From a virus (Duplodnaviria > Heunggongvirae > Uroviricota > Caudoviricetes > Demerecviridae): 30,744 bases of DNA. A program made the position numbers and the translations under genes. Below the pieces are notes generated by a model. That model searched no databases and was not told where the DNA came from. It worked only from the letters and a program-made list of their open reading frames with translations. Shown piece after piece: positions 21,578 to 26,833 of this stretch (position 1 is the first letter of the stretch; each line of letters begins with the position of its first letter). The stretch lies in the IMG/VR virus record IMGVR_UViG_2595698513_000001, positions 1 to 30,744 of that record. One strand, 5' to 3'.

Positions 21578-21709
21578 TTAATTTTCAATTTGATGAATCT
21601 CTTGCTCTAAAAAAGACCAATCTAATCCAATATCTCCGTGTTGCGAGTAATTATAGGCAGCAGCACAAAGAATACCTACTATTACGTTGAATATTAATAT
21701 CTTCCACAC
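21578..21709 (-). CDS. small membrane protein (43 aa), absent from the ORF track
   Basis: GTG start with GAGAGG upstream; MWKILIFNVIVGILCAAAYNYSQHGDIGLDWSFLEQEIHQIEN*; fills the gap exactly. Confidence 0.5.
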   Translation of the reverse strand: MWKILIFNVIVGILCAAAYNYSQHGDIGLDWSFLEQEIHQIEN

Positions 21710-22626
21710 GATAATATTACCTCTCGCAATTCTTTATCTGAAAGTTGTAAGACTTCAGTGCCACCGTCACCCTCTAATCGCACCTTGTTATTATAAAACT
21801 TATGTAGTATCTCTGTTTCTAACGTTACTGGTTGTTTTATGTTTCTATATATTAATATATTATACTCTACATTCCACTGTTTGGCACATTTTTTAATTCT
21901 ATTTATGCCTAGATGTGAGGTAGTAACACCTATTTTGTACATATCGGTACCAACTAAGTTCCATAGATATAATATATCATAGGGGTATTTACCACAACTA
22001 GGGCACCCAAAACCTCTAAGATGTAACTTTGGAGTTTGCTTAAATTCTCCGTGCTCTAGGCAAGTTATTCTAACTTTTGTATCTACGTTTTTATACACTA
22101 CATTATCGTAGTTGTATTTATCAGAGAAGATAGTTCTAGCTCTCTGAACAAACCTCTGCTTACCTAACTTTATGTTATTTGCACATTTAGGGCACCCTTG
22201 CCCAGTTAGGTGCATCGCAGGAGTTTGGAGGAAGTCTCCGTGTACTGGACAACTAATATGTACCTTTGTGTTATTATTTTTATATACTACATTATTGTAG
22301 CTATACTTGTCGGCATGTACTTGCACTGCTTTCAGTATAAAGTCTTTTGTTGATAGCCTTTGACTACCCCCACATTTTGGGCAGCCCCGACCAGTACAGT
22401 GTTTAGAGGCTACTTGTGTAAACACCCCATGATCAGGGCATATTATATCCACCCTATTTTTACTATTAGATACGTCTTCAACTAAAGAATAATCGTACCG
22501 ACTGCCGTGTTTTTCTTTTGCTCGTAGTAAAAACCAGGCTAATTTAATCTCTGGGAGTACCGTACATCTTATATTTCCAGACTTTCCTAAATATCCCTGT
22601 TTTTCGAACCACTCTCTAGTATCCAT
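21694..22626 (-). CDS. putative free-standing homing endonuclease: 3 Zn-ribbon repeats (DUF723/CapR-like) + C-terminal GIY-YIG/T5orf172-like domain
   Basis: Three ~63-aa repeats with C-x-x-HG-x-F-x-Q...H...GCPxC; C-terminal ILYLW...YKIGVT...R...E...GGTE. Confidence 0.8.
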   Translation of the reverse strand: MDTREWFEKQGYLGKSGNIRCTVLPEIKLAWFLLRAKEKHGSRYDYSLVEDVSNSKNRVDIICPDHGVFTQVASKHCTGRGCPKCGGSQRLSTKDFILKAVQVHADKYSYNNVVYKNNNTKVHISCPVHGDFLQTPAMHLTGQGCPKCANNIKLGKQRFVQRARTIFSDKYNYDNVVYKNVDTKVRITCLEHGEFKQTPKLHLRGFGCPSCGKYPYDILYLWNLVGTDMYKIGVTTSHLGINRIKKCAKQWNVEYNILIYRNIKQPVTLETEILHKFYNNKVRLEGDGGTEVLQLSDKELREVILSCGRY

Positions 22627-22778
22627 TTTTCCTCCAATTCTTGTGCTAGTCTTTCTGAGATTCTTCTTTCTAGTTTTTTATAATATATCTGAGGTCTGGT
22701 TGTAGTTTTTACAGGTTTAGGGAAGTCTAGTATCCAAGGTCTACGTGCCACTATTGGTGGCACTACTCTACATAACAT
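22587..22778 (-). CDS. small hypothetical protein downstream of the origin-binding protein
   Basis: AGGAG RBS after the obp stop; 63 aa; 40-bp overlap with the endonuclease. Confidence 0.65.
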   Translation of the reverse strand: MLCRVVPPIVARRPWILDFPKPVKTTTRPQIYYKKLERRISERLAQELEEKWILESGSKNRDI

Positions 22779-22790
22779 CTTTACACTCCT

Positions 22791-25580
22791 TTACAGTAAC
22801 AATACGTCTTTATCTCCTAGCATTGACAGCTCAAACTCAGTCATAAACTCAGTAGGAATCTGAATGCCCTCGATTTTACAGTAAGTACGATACCAGCTAA
22901 TAATGTTATCAAACTCACCAGGCTCTTCAATACCCATCATTTTAAAGTATCGTTTAATACGCCAAGGTTCTGTACGAACATCTAGACCCGTGCATTGATA
23001 CCAGTCACTAGGGAACTGTTTCAAATGCTGAACAAAGGGCTCAAAGTTGTGGGTACATGATTTGATAATCTTCCAGAAACGTTTATGTACTTTATGGAAG
23101 AATGCCGCACGGTCATGGGGCTTCTCTTTCAACCAACGTTCCACCATTTCTTCTGTAACATCACCTAGGTCATCCACATCATCGTAATAACGTGTAATAA
23201 ACTGTTTCACTTCCCAAGCATCGTTGTGACGCTGTAACTGGAAACTAGGTGTTGCTGATAGAATCGCGTTCACACGTTCTTCATGGTATTCTGCGTTAGC
23301 TGATTCAATGTTACCCCATTTACTAGGGTCTAGGGAGATTCGACAACCTTGGTCACGTAATAACATACGGAAGGTTGATTTATACTTTGTACATTCTTCT
23401 TCTCGTCGTTTAGCAAAGATTTTACGACAACGTTGTAGCCAGCCAAGTGATTCTTCATACTTATCTGCGCCTGCTTTAAACCCTTCCGTCTGTGGAGCGG
23501 TATAGTAGTATATAGTTTTAGCTCCACGGTCACGTCTAAGTGCCTGGAAGCGCAGGTTTGGGGAGTGGATACCCGAATCACGAGTTATTAGAAAGACAGT
23601 ATCAAAATAGCTAAAGTCCACCCCACTAGTAACAGAGGGGCTGCATAGAAGACCATCGACTCTCTGTTGTTGTAGAGAAGGGTTTCCATACGTGAGAATT
23701 TCTTTGATATCTGCATCTTTGGTAGAGTTTTTGTGGATTTCTTTGATATTAGCAGCAGTTACACTCCGTAAGGCTATACCTTTCTCGTTAAGCTCATCTG
23801 GTGAGCAGTCCGATACTAGTAAGCATTTTTCACCAATCTCTAACGCGCCCTGCATAGCAGCCCAAACAGATGCTTCATCGAACAGTTCGATAGCTTTAGC
23901 GTTAGCTAGCATCTTTCTGTCATGCTGATAAATCATTACTGGTTTTACAGGGTCACATAGCCTAGCATACGCTTCAATAGTTTCCGGTGAAATATCACCA
24001 TCCGACAGTACAACATACTTAGCTTCTTGCAAGATTAGTTTTAGGGTCTTAATACATTTGTCTTTTTCTTTGATAAGATCACTGAATAGAATATCATTCA
24101 TCACAGCATCACACTCATCTATAAAGACCATGCCTAAACCTTTTTGATTGATTGTATCGTAGAAGCGATGCAAAGAGTGGATAGTAGTAGACATACGATT
24201 AATCTTACCATCACGGAACTCGGTGTAATCTTTCAGTTTATTATAACATCCAGACTCAAGTTTCTTAGCGTTACCCTCTACTAGAGATACGGTGTTAGTA
24301 ATAGATAGAAAACGACCATCAAACAACCCACTAGACAACCATGTCTGTACTGTAGTTGTTTTACCTGTACCCAAACTAGCTTTAACAAATGTCAAACTAT
24401 CCTCTGGAGGTAAATGGTTAATTTTCAAAAACCTATCATTTACGTTACTATCTGTTTCAATATCCTTTACAGGCAACATACATGGAGCTGTAGGGTCAGT
24501 TGAAACATTAACATCGCCTTTTACTTTACGTAAACTACGAGATAGAACTATTTTAAGTGCTGCTTCCTTAGCGTTATTGATATAGGCTTCTGGTTCACGT
24601 TTCAAACCATTATACCCTTTGAGGATATTACGAACCTGTTCATCTAGCCAATTAATATCTACACCTTGTTCTACGGCTGCTGCATAAACAGAGATACTGT
24701 GTCGCATGAACACGTTATCCTTTGCCGTTTTTAGGTTTTCAATACGCTTTTCAAAATCTTTACTAGGATAATCATGGAATCCTTCAATATCCATAATATA
24801 TCCGAAGTGTTCTTTCTTCAAGGTATAAGATGCCATACCTTGGTACTCTGGCATAGTTTCTAGTAAATCCACCTTATCCCCGCCGACCAAAACCGCCCTT
24901 TCTTTATCCTTGAAAGGGTCTAATTCAGGATTCTCAAAAACTGGAGCAGCAGTATACATCAAGTGCACTTTATCATAGACAGACGTATCTAAAAGCTCAA
25001 AATCGTGTAATTCCTTACATTTACGGTTAATCTGATAGGCTAACCATTTTAGCTGTGCATTAGATACTGCCCTAGTTGCTTGCATATACATGTGCAAACG
25101 GATGCCAGGCTTAATTCCGGCACTACCACTAGCTTTCGCTATGTAAGCTGCTGTTTTTGGAAACATTTCTGGCTCTAACTCATTCAATAGTTCTACGCAC
25201 CATCGCCCTTGTTCTTCTATGGTCATATTGGCTCTAGGAGCCTCGATACCATCAATATCCATGTGAATTATACGCGAACGAACCGAGCAATTGAACGTCT
25301 CGGCGTTTCGTCGTATATTTCGGATACTAGACACTGGTGTTGCACGTACAAGAGCAATCTCCGGATTTCTTTGATACTCAGAAATTAGCTTATGTACTTG
25401 TTCTAGTGAGTTGGGATTAACTGACTCTATTACGTTAAAGAATTTAGGCATAGCAGGGTCTTTAGATTTACCATCTTTGTCAAAAACTTTTGCTAAACGA
25501 ACTTTCGCATTCGGGTCAGGTTGAATATACTCCAGACCTGAAAAGTAAGGCTTAAATACGCCTTCGATAAACGTTAGCAT
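22791..25580 (-). CDS. obp: replication origin-binding protein: N-terminal AEP-like primase domain + UL9-like SF2 helicase
   Basis: MDIDG (DxD), SGSAG...RLH, LLDTSVY; helicase ASLGTGKTT, IDECD, SDGD, SPSVTSGVDF, QALRRDR. Start set at MLTFIEG (GGGAG RBS). Confidence 0.85.
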   Translation of the reverse strand: MLTFIEGVFKPYFSGLEYIQPDPNAKVRLAKVFDKDGKSKDPAMPKFFNVIESVNPNSLEQVHKLISEYQRNPEIALVRATPVSSIRNIRRNAETFNCSVRSRIIHMDIDGIEAPRANMTIEEQGRWCVELLNELEPEMFPKTAAYIAKASGSAGIKPGIRLHMYMQATRAVSNAQLKWLAYQINRKCKELHDFELLDTSVYDKVHLMYTAAPVFENPELDPFKDKERAVLVGGDKVDLLETMPEYQGMASYTLKKEHFGYIMDIEGFHDYPSKDFEKRIENLKTAKDNVFMRHSISVYAAAVEQGVDINWLDEQVRNILKGYNGLKREPEAYINNAKEAALKIVLSRSLRKVKGDVNVSTDPTAPCMLPVKDIETDSNVNDRFLKINHLPPEDSLTFVKASLGTGKTTTVQTWLSSGLFDGRFLSITNTVSLVEGNAKKLESGCYNKLKDYTEFRDGKINRMSTTIHSLHRFYDTINQKGLGMVFIDECDAVMNDILFSDLIKEKDKCIKTLKLILQEAKYVVLSDGDISPETIEAYARLCDPVKPVMIYQHDRKMLANAKAIELFDEASVWAAMQGALEIGEKCLLVSDCSPDELNEKGIALRSVTAANIKEIHKNSTKDADIKEILTYGNPSLQQQRVDGLLCSPSVTSGVDFSYFDTVFLITRDSGIHSPNLRFQALRRDRGAKTIYYYTAPQTEGFKAGADKYEESLGWLQRCRKIFAKRREEECTKYKSTFRMLLRDQGCRISLDPSKWGNIESANAEYHEERVNAILSATPSFQLQRHNDAWEVKQFITRYYDDVDDLGDVTEEMVERWLKEKPHDRAAFFHKVHKRFWKIIKSCTHNFEPFVQHLKQFPSDWYQCTGLDVRTEPWRIKRYFKMMGIEEPGEFDNIISWYRTYCKIEGIQIPTEFMTEFELSMLGDKDVLLL

Positions 25581-25609
25581 TAAATATCTCCCATGTTGGT
25601 TGAACATTT

Positions 25610-26186
25610 TGTTTATAGTGCTTATTACTTTTACATGCTAATGCCGACAGTAATCCACCTACCCTAACTTATAGCTACGTATCTCAGCGTTTCAACACTA
25701 CGAAGGGCTCAAATGGGACTTATCTATGTGAGTGGCGATTCCCCGCTCCTATGCAGGACACACTGCTAGCCTGGCTCACGGCATCCACCAATCCTTTGAT
25801 GGCGGCAAGTTGTCTATAGCCAGCTCTCCCCTGATTACACCATAGACGCTTAGTTCCAATAATAGTTCACTCTTACGCCGAGCTTTGTAGTTTCATGACT
25901 GTTGCCTACCACAAGAGGATCCTGGGCTAGGTCACTACCTCTACTCCACTGTACAATTTATAACCCTATCTTTGACAGACACTACATTGCCGGTTACTTC
26001 CATTCTCAGGGTACTAGTAAAACTAGCGTTTCATCTTTTAGATTCGGGTGTGTACCTACGTGCTTGAGCGTCACACGCAGTGCGAGTTATGTTTATAGAC
26101 ACTCATAGAATGCCCATAAAGATAACGGGGTAGAGGGCACTACCCCAGGAGAAGCGTAATATGGAAATCGACTCTTTCGAATCAAT
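25610..26186 (-). ncRNA. candidate large structured RNA / 5' leader of obp
   Basis: About 600 nt without a credible ORF between a strong promoter and obp; many stems, several with GNRA loops and with G.U pairs that only work on the minus strand. Confidence 0.5.
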
Positions 26187-26192
26187 ACACAT

Positions 26193-26221
26193 ATTTTATA
26201 ACATTTGGTTAACAATGTCAA
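26193..26221 (-). promoter_or_regulatory. sigma70-type promoter driving the leader RNA/obp
   Basis: TTGACA-17 bp-TAAAAT; predicted +1 near 26186. Confidence 0.8.
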
Positions 26222-26245
26222 ATCAAAAACTTTAGATGTTACATG

Positions 26246-26560
26246 CTAACTGATTCCAAGCATACTACAACCGAGTTCCATCTTTAACTCTTTAGCGATT
26301 TGTTTGCCTTGGCCAGTCACGAAGTGCTTATAATTATTAGGGCGAACGATGTGATGCACATCATGTACTTTTCCATCATAATAGACTTCTGCACTAACTT
26401 TTATTTCGGGGAACTCTGCCAGTAAGTCTACTTTCTCCTGTAGATTGCACTGACGGATATTATGTGGGCGACCGTTAGGTTCTACCGCTGTAACCGAGAC
26501 GTGAGATACCAGGTGTTCTAATATCTCCGTCAAATAACGTACTTTATCCTGCATATTCAT
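26246..26560 (-). CDS. hypothetical protein (104 aa)
   Basis: Start reassigned to MNMQDK after the AGGA RBS; promoter immediately upstream. Confidence 0.7.
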   Translation of the reverse strand: MNMQDKVRYLTEILEHLVSHVSVTAVEPNGRPHNIRQCNLQEKVDLLAEFPEIKVSAEVYYDGKVHDVHHIVRPNNYKHFVTGQGKQIAKELKMELGCSMLGIS

Positions 26561-26592: not shown

Positions 26593-26622
26593 ATTATATG
26601 ACAAATTGGGGCAGTTTGGCAA
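26593..26622 (-). promoter_or_regulatory. sigma70-type promoter (leftward)
   Basis: TTGCCA-18 bp-TATAAT. Confidence 0.65.
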
Positions 26623-26751
26623 ATACATTTTTGTTTTACTGCCAAACTCGTTCGCCCATAATATAAGTATGATGTCAATTACCATATTTTAGGGAAACTT
26701 GTCAACTTAAATTTTACAACAAAACTCATAGCAGAAACTTTAAAATTTTAT

Positions 26752-26780
26752 TTGATATAGATCAAGTATTTTGCTATAAT
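26752..26780 (+). promoter_or_regulatory. sigma70-type promoter for nrdD with overlapping FNR box
   Basis: TTGATA-17 bp-TATAAT with TGn extension; TTGAT-ATAG-ATCAA at 26752-26765. Confidence 0.85.
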
Positions 26781-26833
26781 ATATGTCCAGTTTGGGAATT
26801 TTAAATGACATTTCCGTCCCTCGGAGGAGAAGT

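Follow-up and report, generated by a model that had tools for sequence, protein, structure and literature searches.

Why does a phage whose genes are otherwise tightly packed keep several hundred nucleotides (nt) free of genes directly in front of a replication gene? The question is raised by a stretch of 30,744 nt from a virus of the Demerecviridae (IMG/VR virus record IMGVR_UViG_2595698513_000001, positions 1 to 30,744; the window in what follows, to which all coordinates refer). Here a gap of 665 nt lies between a hypothetical open reading frame (ORF) of 104/114 amino acids (aa; stop at 26246) and the start codon (ATG, 25580-25578) of obp, the gene of a protein labelled as replication origin binding (OBP). 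An earlier note on this DNA had proposed that the gap gives rise to a structured RNA of about 600 nt which continues into obp. Our analysis indicates that the gap very probably encodes a conserved structured RNA on the minus strand, as covariation was found over about 250 nt of its 3' part and a stable, nearly invariant domain of 101 nt at its 5' end; transcription itself we infer. The more far-reaching reading, that this is a large multi-domain RNA of about 605 nt which is selected as an RNA and acts in cis as a leader of obp, is taken as one statement and given a probability of roughly 0.45. The promoter and the gene between which the RNA would extend are as follows.

26193 to 26221, minus strand: sigma-70 promoter TTGACA-17-TAAAAT, matching at 11 of 12 positions, predicted +1 near 26186
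22791 to 25580, minus strand: obp, a 929-aa primase-like and helicase protein, PHROG 3712 'replication origin binding'

Vibrio phage VPT02, which belongs to the Ermolyevavirinae (Demerecviridae), shares 99.7% identity with the window in this region, and portions of the region are matched by 50 Vibrio phage records. Four sequence types were distinguished: type A, the window and VPT02 (gap 665 nt, RNA 609 nt); type B, the phages Wyman, KIT04, Pontus and Pylo (gap about 840 nt, RNA about 780 nt); type C, VF16, VPG01, PVo5, IW18, Chazly21, Ceto and others (gap about 712 nt, 805 nt in Ceto; RNA about 655-750 nt); and type D, phi 3 and JSF10 (gap about 1100 nt, RNA about 1060 nt). The types cannot be aligned by sequence beyond the first 135 bp, and 5-20% of the central and 3' bases of the window align to types C and D. 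Five short islands are nevertheless collinear in all four types, with similar spacing save for one expandable interval; in order they read RUAAGAGU, ACUAAGYG, GCUAGCAGU or ACUAACCRA, ACRUAGANA and UCGGYAYUAG. The change in size between the types consists of whole helices inserted as modules. The 3' body keeps only short islands and base pairing.

Covariance models were used to follow this pairing from type to type. The first (R1) was built from type B alone and spans island 4 to island 6 (I4-I6; 140 positions, 32 pairs, with a structure derived by eye across the types), the second (R2) was built from the alignment that resulted from the R1 search, and the third (R3) was built from types A and B for island 2 to island 4 (I2-I4; 25761-25888 in the window, 17 pairs). 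R1 matches the window at 25636-25771 with 94.3 bits (E = 8.5e-24). It also matches every type C locus from end to end at the corresponding position (E = 2e-5 to 6e-4 in a broad search, E = 6.8e-6 to 2e-4 in a smaller one). R2 matches type D at the expected place (E = 0.0046), and R3 matches type C with E = 8.5e-4 to 0.055. Sequence-only profiles from the model alignments, run with nhmmer, reached neither type D nor any gap of the T5-like phages. The elements of the 3' body in the window are the following.

25636 to 25771, minus strand: I4-I6 domain (R1, R2); 94.1% of cells pair, 11 of 32 pairs changed on both sides
25765-25770 with 25637-25644, minus strand: Px, closing helix of the I4-I6 domain (R1/R2)
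25755-25758 with 25747-25750, minus strand: H1, inside the I4-I6 domain (R1/R2)
25720-25729, minus strand: island ACAUAGAUAA of the I4-I6 domain
25711-25716 with 25655-25660, minus strand: H2 outer (R1/R2)
25704-25707 with 25662-25665, minus strand: H2 inner (R1/R2)
25695-25702 with 25678-25690, minus strand: H3 (R1/R2)
25674-25676 with 25666-25668, minus strand: H4 (R1/R2)
25761 to 25888, minus strand: I2-I4 domain (R3); 100% of cells pair, 10 of 17 pairs changed on both sides
25869-25876 and 25847-25854, minus strand: islands GUAAGAGU and ACUAAGCG, respectively, of the I2-I4 domain
25840-25847 with 25812-25819, minus strand: Ha, GUCUAUGG/CUAUAGAC, with the inner UCAG/CUGG (R3)
25831-25834 with 25820-25823, minus strand: Hb (R3)
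25799-25802 with 25785-25788, minus strand: Hc (R3)

Taken together, the two domains (25636-25888, about 250 nt) contain 49 pairs, 21 of which changed on both sides, with 94-100% of cells paired. When the 3' partners of the I4-I6 domain were slid by one to three columns, pairing fell to 26-54% and zero to three pairs remained doubly changed; the slid controls of the I2-I4 domain gave zero to two. Neither the covariation score nor the number of doubly changed cells was reached by any of 500 shuffles. The helix GUCUAUGG/CUAUAGAC with its inner UCAG/CUGG (25812-25847), one of the stems listed in the earlier note, turned out to be the best covarying helix of the region. Its two strands, and those of H2 outer, differ by type as follows.

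Ha, type A: GUCUAUGG/CUAUAGAC
Ha, type B: GAGUAUAG/CUAUAUUC
Ha, type C: GUUC-GUUG/CAAC-GAAC
Ha, type D: GUUAUUUGA/UCAGAUAAU
H2 outer, type A: CCAUUU/AGGUGG
H2 outer, type B: CUUAAU/GUUAGG
H2 outer, type C: GCUARU/GYUAGU
H2 outer, type D: GCUAU/GUAGU

Several pairs of the 3' body are G-U in some or all sequences, and some G-U pairs are invariant. Since a G-U pair becomes an A-C mismatch on the opposite strand, this fits the orientation of the promoter's strand; the many G-U pairs of the 3' body, and those of hairpin P3 described below, fit that strand only, as had been argued from the sequence. The helices are under selection for pairing on the strand that the promoter would transcribe.

The 5' end of the predicted RNA behaves differently: it hardly varies and is highly stable. 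For nucleotides 1-101 (26186-26086), the predicted structure consists of three hairpins and makes up 48% of the structural ensemble; the folding energy has z = -5.62, with none of 200 shuffles folding as well. Two of the hairpins, P1 and the GGGGUAG/CUACCCC stem (26127-26146), are predicted by folding just as they had first been described.

26167 to 26186, minus strand: P1, an 8-bp hairpin with a GAAA loop that starts at the predicted +1, AUUGAUUC-GAAA-GAGUCGAU (predicted fold)
26126 to 26147, minus strand: P2, a G+C-rich hairpin of 7-8 bp followed by UUAUCUUUAU (26116-26125), with a terminator-like score and the look of an intrinsic terminator or attenuator
26086 to 26126, minus strand: P3, an 18-bp hairpin with three G-U pairs and one U-G pair, whose 5' strand is the U-rich tail of P2 (predicted fold)

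Among 13 relatives of types A-C, 99.4% of the cells of this domain pair, and zero pairs changed on both sides; true covariation is therefore absent from this domain. Of the variable columns, about half lie in loops or unpaired positions, and nearly all others are of the wobble type, with the pair kept. In P1, the changes at paired positions preserve the pair by wobble (U-G to U-A, U-A to U-G); the one exception is KIT04, where the pair that closes the loop has gone from C-G to a C-U mismatch. The paired positions of P2 are invariant in the 13 relatives. Differences in P3 fall in the 3-nt loop or a 1x1 internal loop or are of the wobble type, except for one A-C mismatch in Pylo. Including the promoter, the 5' domain of the window is 97-98% identical to those of types B and C (89% in KIT04), compared with 61-88% for the upstream ORF and 72-81% for obp in the same phages. 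In type D the 5' end is different, yet it opens with a hairpin of the same design, GGCUC-UGAA-GAGCC. A scan of viral contigs for the motif of the 5' domain returned matches in two known relatives only.

One statement of the earlier note has to be corrected here. It had held that no terminator precedes obp; the GGGGUAG hairpin (26147-26126) with its tail UUAUCUUUAU, however, scores as intrinsic-terminator-like, 40 nt into the transcript. The U-rich tail of this terminator-like hairpin is at the same time the 5' strand of P3, and a conserved antiterminator was not identified. Two alternative contacts of P2 were considered and discarded, namely a pseudoknot of its loop with GGGCA, which is invariant and weakened in KIT04, and a long-range pairing of P2 with 25920-25947, which is lost in type C. 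The segment 25920-25947 is, as a side observation, a near copy of the P2 hairpin (GGUAGUGACCUAGCC vs GGUAGUGCCCUCUACC) and could pair with 26127-26150 (inverted repeats I2 and I3, direct repeat D8).

Other properties of the gap agree with a non-coding transcript. The near-consensus promoter, recognized from the beginning, is conserved: the -35 box does not vary among eight related phages, and their -10 boxes are close to the consensus. From about 26186 to obp, the predicted transcript measures about 605 nt, and a comparison across the types found no ORF in the gap that is conserved between them, in agreement with the claim that the stretch lacks a credible ORF. A 172-aa antisense ORF of VF16 is split into two frames in its closest relatives, and a frame of 38-42 aa over the 5' domain has its start inside the -35 box. 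As had also been noted, the stretch is richer in G+C than other spacers (45-50% against about 30% in the neighbouring spacer): G+C is 0.445-0.50 over 25600-26100, about 0.40 in neighbouring genes and 0.295-0.32 in the divergent-promoter spacer at 26600-26800. The region is present in its own genome as one copy only.

The RNA does not belong to a family that we could recognize. Searching the whole window with Rfam 15 (4227 models) at gathering thresholds gave no match, and at E up to 10 over 25400-26400 there were three weak matches far below threshold, two of them outside the transcript; ARAGORN found no tRNA or tmRNA. These searches bear out the impression that the element is not a recognizable tRNA, tmRNA, RNase P or group I/II intron. 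A likeness to RNase P (GUAAGAG and ACAGAAC-like words) was dropped as there was no model match, and an 11-nt tetraloop receptor at CUAAG..UAUGG was dropped as the spacing is wrong.

The inheritance of the RNA is closely linked to that of obp. The first 1000 nt of obp are 81-100% identical within an RNA type and 66-76% between types, so that this part of the gene groups the phages exactly as the RNA types do. The grouping given by the upstream ORF is that of genus, with 97% identity between Wyman (type B) and IW18 (type C) and 90% between the window (type A) and VF16 (type C). As obp tracks the RNA type while the upstream ORF tracks the genus, the RNA body and obp travel together, with past crossovers located in or near the 5' domain. 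Such co-inheritance could come from adjacency alone; it would also be expected of a matched pair of initiator and origin or of regulator and target. 'Origin binding' has to be read as a label rather than a tested function, since searches of Pfam and PDB with the OBP sequence gave no match; residues 28-223 of the protein give a weak primase-like match, and its middle part resembles a helicase.

A gap at this position is not confined to the Vibrio phages. Among the Demerecviridae loci examined, nearly all of those with an OBP at least 42% identical to that of the window have an ORF-free gap of about 530-890 nt 5' of obp, and in the T5-like, Proteus and D124-like representatives inspected a strong promoter lies at the 5' end of the gap. 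Likewise, obp in the window is directly preceded by an ORF-free stretch of at least 0.5 kb whose 5' end has a sigma-70 promoter. In a distant group (OBP about 33% identical) the gap is absent from most loci, and a few have one of 287-831 nt. When the gaps of T5-like, Proteus, D124-like and metagenomic relatives were searched with R2 and R3, no match was significant, also with the filters of R2 switched off; the reach of these models falls short because they were built from Vibrio-phage types only. Given the lack of a significant T5-like match, we claim for the T5-like gaps the same position and character, not homology. An island, CUUAGCGG / CUAACCGA, is shared with the T5 types, where by eye it is apparently a hairpin loop, in contrast to the helix strand that it seems to form in the Vibrio phages. 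A metagenome scan for obp relatives yielded five loci only. The literature, including transcription papers on BF23 and T5, was searched and no description of the obp-upstream region was found. The element thus appears to be the Vibrio-phage form of an apparently family-wide feature that is absent from Rfam and from the searched literature. The 'Rad' anti-retron of T5 is located in another region.

How might the RNA act? The earlier note had named a leader of obp, a pre-primer and an RNA partner of the primase-helicase as possible roles. Transcription would start at the strong host-type promoter (26221-26193) at about 26186, and the RNA would form the 5' part of the obp messenger, as no terminator follows P2. 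It would be laid out as the nearly invariant domain of three hairpins at the 5' end, a centre specific to the type, and a 3' body of two helical domains. As a leader acting in cis, it may set the amount of obp message and of OBP protein: P1 at the very 5' end may shield the message against decay, P2 and its U-rich tail may end a fraction of the transcripts early, and the folded body together with a hairpin at the ribosome-binding site (RBS) may serve as the platform from which a factor of phage or host, perhaps OBP itself, tunes translation. The elements concerned with translation are found at the following place.

25587 to 25607, minus strand: small hairpin AUGUU-CAACC-AACAU (25593-25607) and the Shine-Dalgarno sequence of obp, GGGAGA (25587-25592), conserved in types A-C

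T5-type obp genes are preceded by a similar AACCAACAU-AGGAG. The motif AAC(C/U)AACAU, which directly precedes the Shine-Dalgarno sequence of obp, is common to the Vibrio phages and the T5-like phage BF23 (locus L013, about 2385-2405) and forms the 3' half of the small hairpin in the window; being shared in this way, it may be a translational operator. Two proposals for sequestration of the RBS were discarded: the invariant UCUCCU of the 5' domain offers six bases, as expected by chance, and a pairing of UCCCAU with UAGAUA, seen in one fold, is specific to the window. A second promoter before obp, TTAGCA-18-TATAAA, fails the criteria of the promoter scan. Among known systems, the leader invites comparison with long autoregulatory ones, namely the 5' untranslated region (UTR) of E. 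coli rne and the translational operators of T4 gene 32 and gene 43, which lie in the 5' UTR of a gene of replication or RNA metabolism, as the obp RNA would, and combine a hairpin at the 5' end with one adjacent to the RBS. The obp RNA differs from them in being several times larger and in having two multi-helix domains.

Several points weigh against this reading. The argument for a mechanism in cis is one of position, and no public RNA run with sequence of the window phage was found. In a Proteus phage relative, the RNA region and obp are separated by a near-consensus promoter, and a promoter is annotated at this place in BF23 by a prediction program; given these promoters in relatives, obp need not depend on the transcript. 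To our knowledge, a body of 600-1060 nt goes far beyond the needs of known leaders. As to the structure, the support for helices covers about 350 of the about 605 nt, the central part of about 200 nt being a single sequence that cannot be aligned with the other types. With z = -1.07, the minimum free energy of the whole transcript is matched by 14 of 100 shuffles; four other pieces of the transcript have z values of -0.14 to +0.96, and the folding energy of the covarying 3' domains, too, is ordinary. As there are only four types, independent events are few. Finally, the models had fitted to the structure the very alignments in which pairs were counted, and such fitting inflates pairing. For this reason, sequence-only profiles from the same seeds were compared: they gave the type C loci 3.5-11.7 and less than 3 bits, compared with 23.7-28.9 and 16.6-23.7 bits from the covariance models. 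Structure therefore adds roughly 12-24 bits per domain.

The description of the stretch as dense in stems accordingly needs to be qualified. All the stems that had been listed exist, and the first 101 nt are exceptional; the whole transcript, however, folds no better than shuffled sequence. Some individual stems fared less well in the comparison. The hairpin GCGG-GGAA-UCGC (25735-25746) is present in the window and not kept in the type B relatives. The stem CUGCGUG/CACGUAG and the proposed long-range helices UGUAGU/ACUACA and CGGCAA/UUGCCG lie in, or pair with, the type-specific central part, and comparative support for them was not found. For the two long-range helices the complementarity is real; consistent equivalents in types B-D were not found. 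The central part itself is summarized as follows.

25889 to 26085, minus strand: central part, specific to the sequence type of the window; 5-17% of its bases align to other types, and it folds no better than shuffled sequence

Within type C, a long-range helix pairs GAGUCUU-CUGU with ACAG-(AGG)-AAGACUC (loci L004-L011, RNA positions of about 255-270 and 385-400). Between VF16 and IW18, a U-A pair of this helix is replaced by C-G, a compensatory change; a local type C hairpin, CACAC/GUGUG, is CACAU/AUGUG in IW18. By this compensatory change and the hairpin variant, the central part is structured in relatives.

The leading alternative to a leader acting in cis, which we nonetheless regard as unlikely, is a large non-coding RNA in its own right, released from the obp message or outliving it and acting in trans, be it in a particle with OBP or a host protein, as a decoy that diverts a host defence, or as a self-assembling 'ornate' RNA of the kind of ROOL and GOLLD. 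The size of the element, the insertion of whole helices between types, which is typical of large functional RNAs, and the short invariant single-stranded islands between covarying helices would suit such a role, as would the promoters between RNA and obp in relatives. The ornate RNAs of bacteria and phages (GOLLD, ROOL, OLE, HEARO and raiA) resemble it in a length of hundreds of nt, in being phage-borne and in their many covarying helices; they also share short invariant islands and helices gained or lost between lineages. However, they are usually free-standing genes. The obp-upstream RNA has a strictly fixed place before one gene across the family and is apparently co-transcribed with it, and no terminator or recognizable processing site precedes obp in the window after P2. 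Moreover, none of the known families of large RNAs matches it, even with E values of up to 10 allowed.

Somewhat less probable still is a pre-primer for replication, in which the transcript would stay hybridized as an R-loop beside obp and be used or processed as the primer of the first round. ColE1 RNA II and the promoter-dependent origins of T4 (oriF, oriG) and T7 work by such a primer. The RNA adjoins an initiator gene and has a strong promoter in front of it, at about 600 nt it is similar in length to RNA II, and three stem-loops under extreme sequence constraint form its 5' domain; as in these systems, a promoter-driven structured transcript of about 0.6 kb lies beside the replication machinery. 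The RNA body and the obp allele are, in addition, inherited as a module with a crossover in or near the 5' domain, and lambdoid phage replication modules show such co-inheritance, although adjacency alone accounts for it. Unlike ColE1, the region has no antisense promoter of the RNA I kind, as no plus-strand promoter-like site was found within 26086-26186. It is richer in G+C than its surroundings and lacks an AT-rich unwinding stretch, and a transcript primer is not obviously needed because OBP has a primase-like domain of its own. A related and equally doubtful idea is that the RNA and OBP are matched to each other and, as a pair, define the T5-like replication origin, the RNA being either the R-loop primer of the first round or the loader of the primase-helicase in an RNA-protein particle. 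If this were true, each obp allele would owe an origin specificity of its own to the type-specific body, and the exchange of RNA body and obp between genera as one module would be explained.

It is very unlikely that the stretch acts as DNA, that is, as an origin with protein-binding sites and DNA hairpins or cruciforms whose transcript is incidental. The name of the neighbouring gene would suit this idea, the promoter-proximal 135 bp are nearly invariant as DNA, and P1-P3 are inverted repeats in DNA as well. The usual signs of a DNA origin were looked for, namely initiator repeats, DnaA boxes and an AT-rich unwinding element, and they were not seen: the region has two-copy short repeats only and no iterons, DnaA boxes are not in excess (one site with a mismatch in the region, and a total in the window below chance expectation), and G+C is above the local average. 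The 3' body keeps pairing rather than sequence, with G-U pairs that mean A-C mismatches on the other strand, and branched helices over 250 nt are unlike protein-binding DNA. Hardly credible, finally, is a functionless spacer or a set of decayed genes with conservation as an artefact of alignment fitting: most pieces indeed fold no better than shuffled and model-fitted alignments lean to their structure, but the matches across types are significant, of full length and at the same place, the structure terms add some 12-24 bits, the 5' domain exceeds the neighbouring genes in conservation, and the gap is kept across a family of tightly packed genomes.

Public RNA data were consulted for T5. On the equivalent region, two T5 runs cover everything, which DNA carry-over could explain. 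In two runs from other studies, the contigs break between the upstream terminator and a point 35-55 nt past the predicted promoter and then continue across the gap into obp. It is a weak hint of transcription and applies to T5 alone; the ends of a transcript, moreover, cannot be read from contigs.

T5-like phages have long served as models and are often considered for phage therapy, and the start of their replication is poorly defined. A conserved RNA of 600-1000 nt before obp that is inherited with obp offers a testable handle on the control of obp or on the function of the origin, and it adds one large structured RNA to the short list of those without a known role. For annotation, it accounts for a persistent 'empty' gap, and the small hypothetical proteins that GenBank records place inside the gap are probably not genes. 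Such entries lie on the opposite strand inside the RNA region of Chazly21 (gp72 and gp73; L008, 1176-1615) and IW18 (gp69; L006, 1481-1615), and these three are probably not genes because their frames are broken or absent in close relatives.

In the type B RNAs, the H3 hairpin module (ACGU..UGUUGAAAC..GAGA.ACGUAG) is present a second time, upstream of island 2 (L002, 1500-1560, with equivalents in L003, L079 and L080). The type B sequence profile matches this copy with E = 7e-6 to 4.5e-4, and the repeated sequence points to growth of the RNA by duplication of modules. A different kind of repetition is seen in distant relatives (L052 and L070/L071, OBP about 33-34% identical), whose obp-upstream gaps contain direct repeats of about 80 nt twice and repeated units of the GUUAACCCGAGG type; unlike anything in the Vibrio-phage types, these could be iterons in that lineage.

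Two features of the surroundings may be added. Upstream, an AT-rich divergent control region (26593-26780, G+C about 0.30) has two promoter-like sites that each match at 11 of 12 positions, one on the minus strand (26622-26593) directed towards the 114-aa ORF and one on the plus strand (26752-26780) directed towards nrdD. Downstream of obp, after a 63-aa ORF (22587-22778), lies a 310-aa ORF (21694-22626, minus strand) with matches to DUF723, a treble-clef zinc finger and MUG113, a combination which suggests a homing-endonuclease-like gene beside the replication module.

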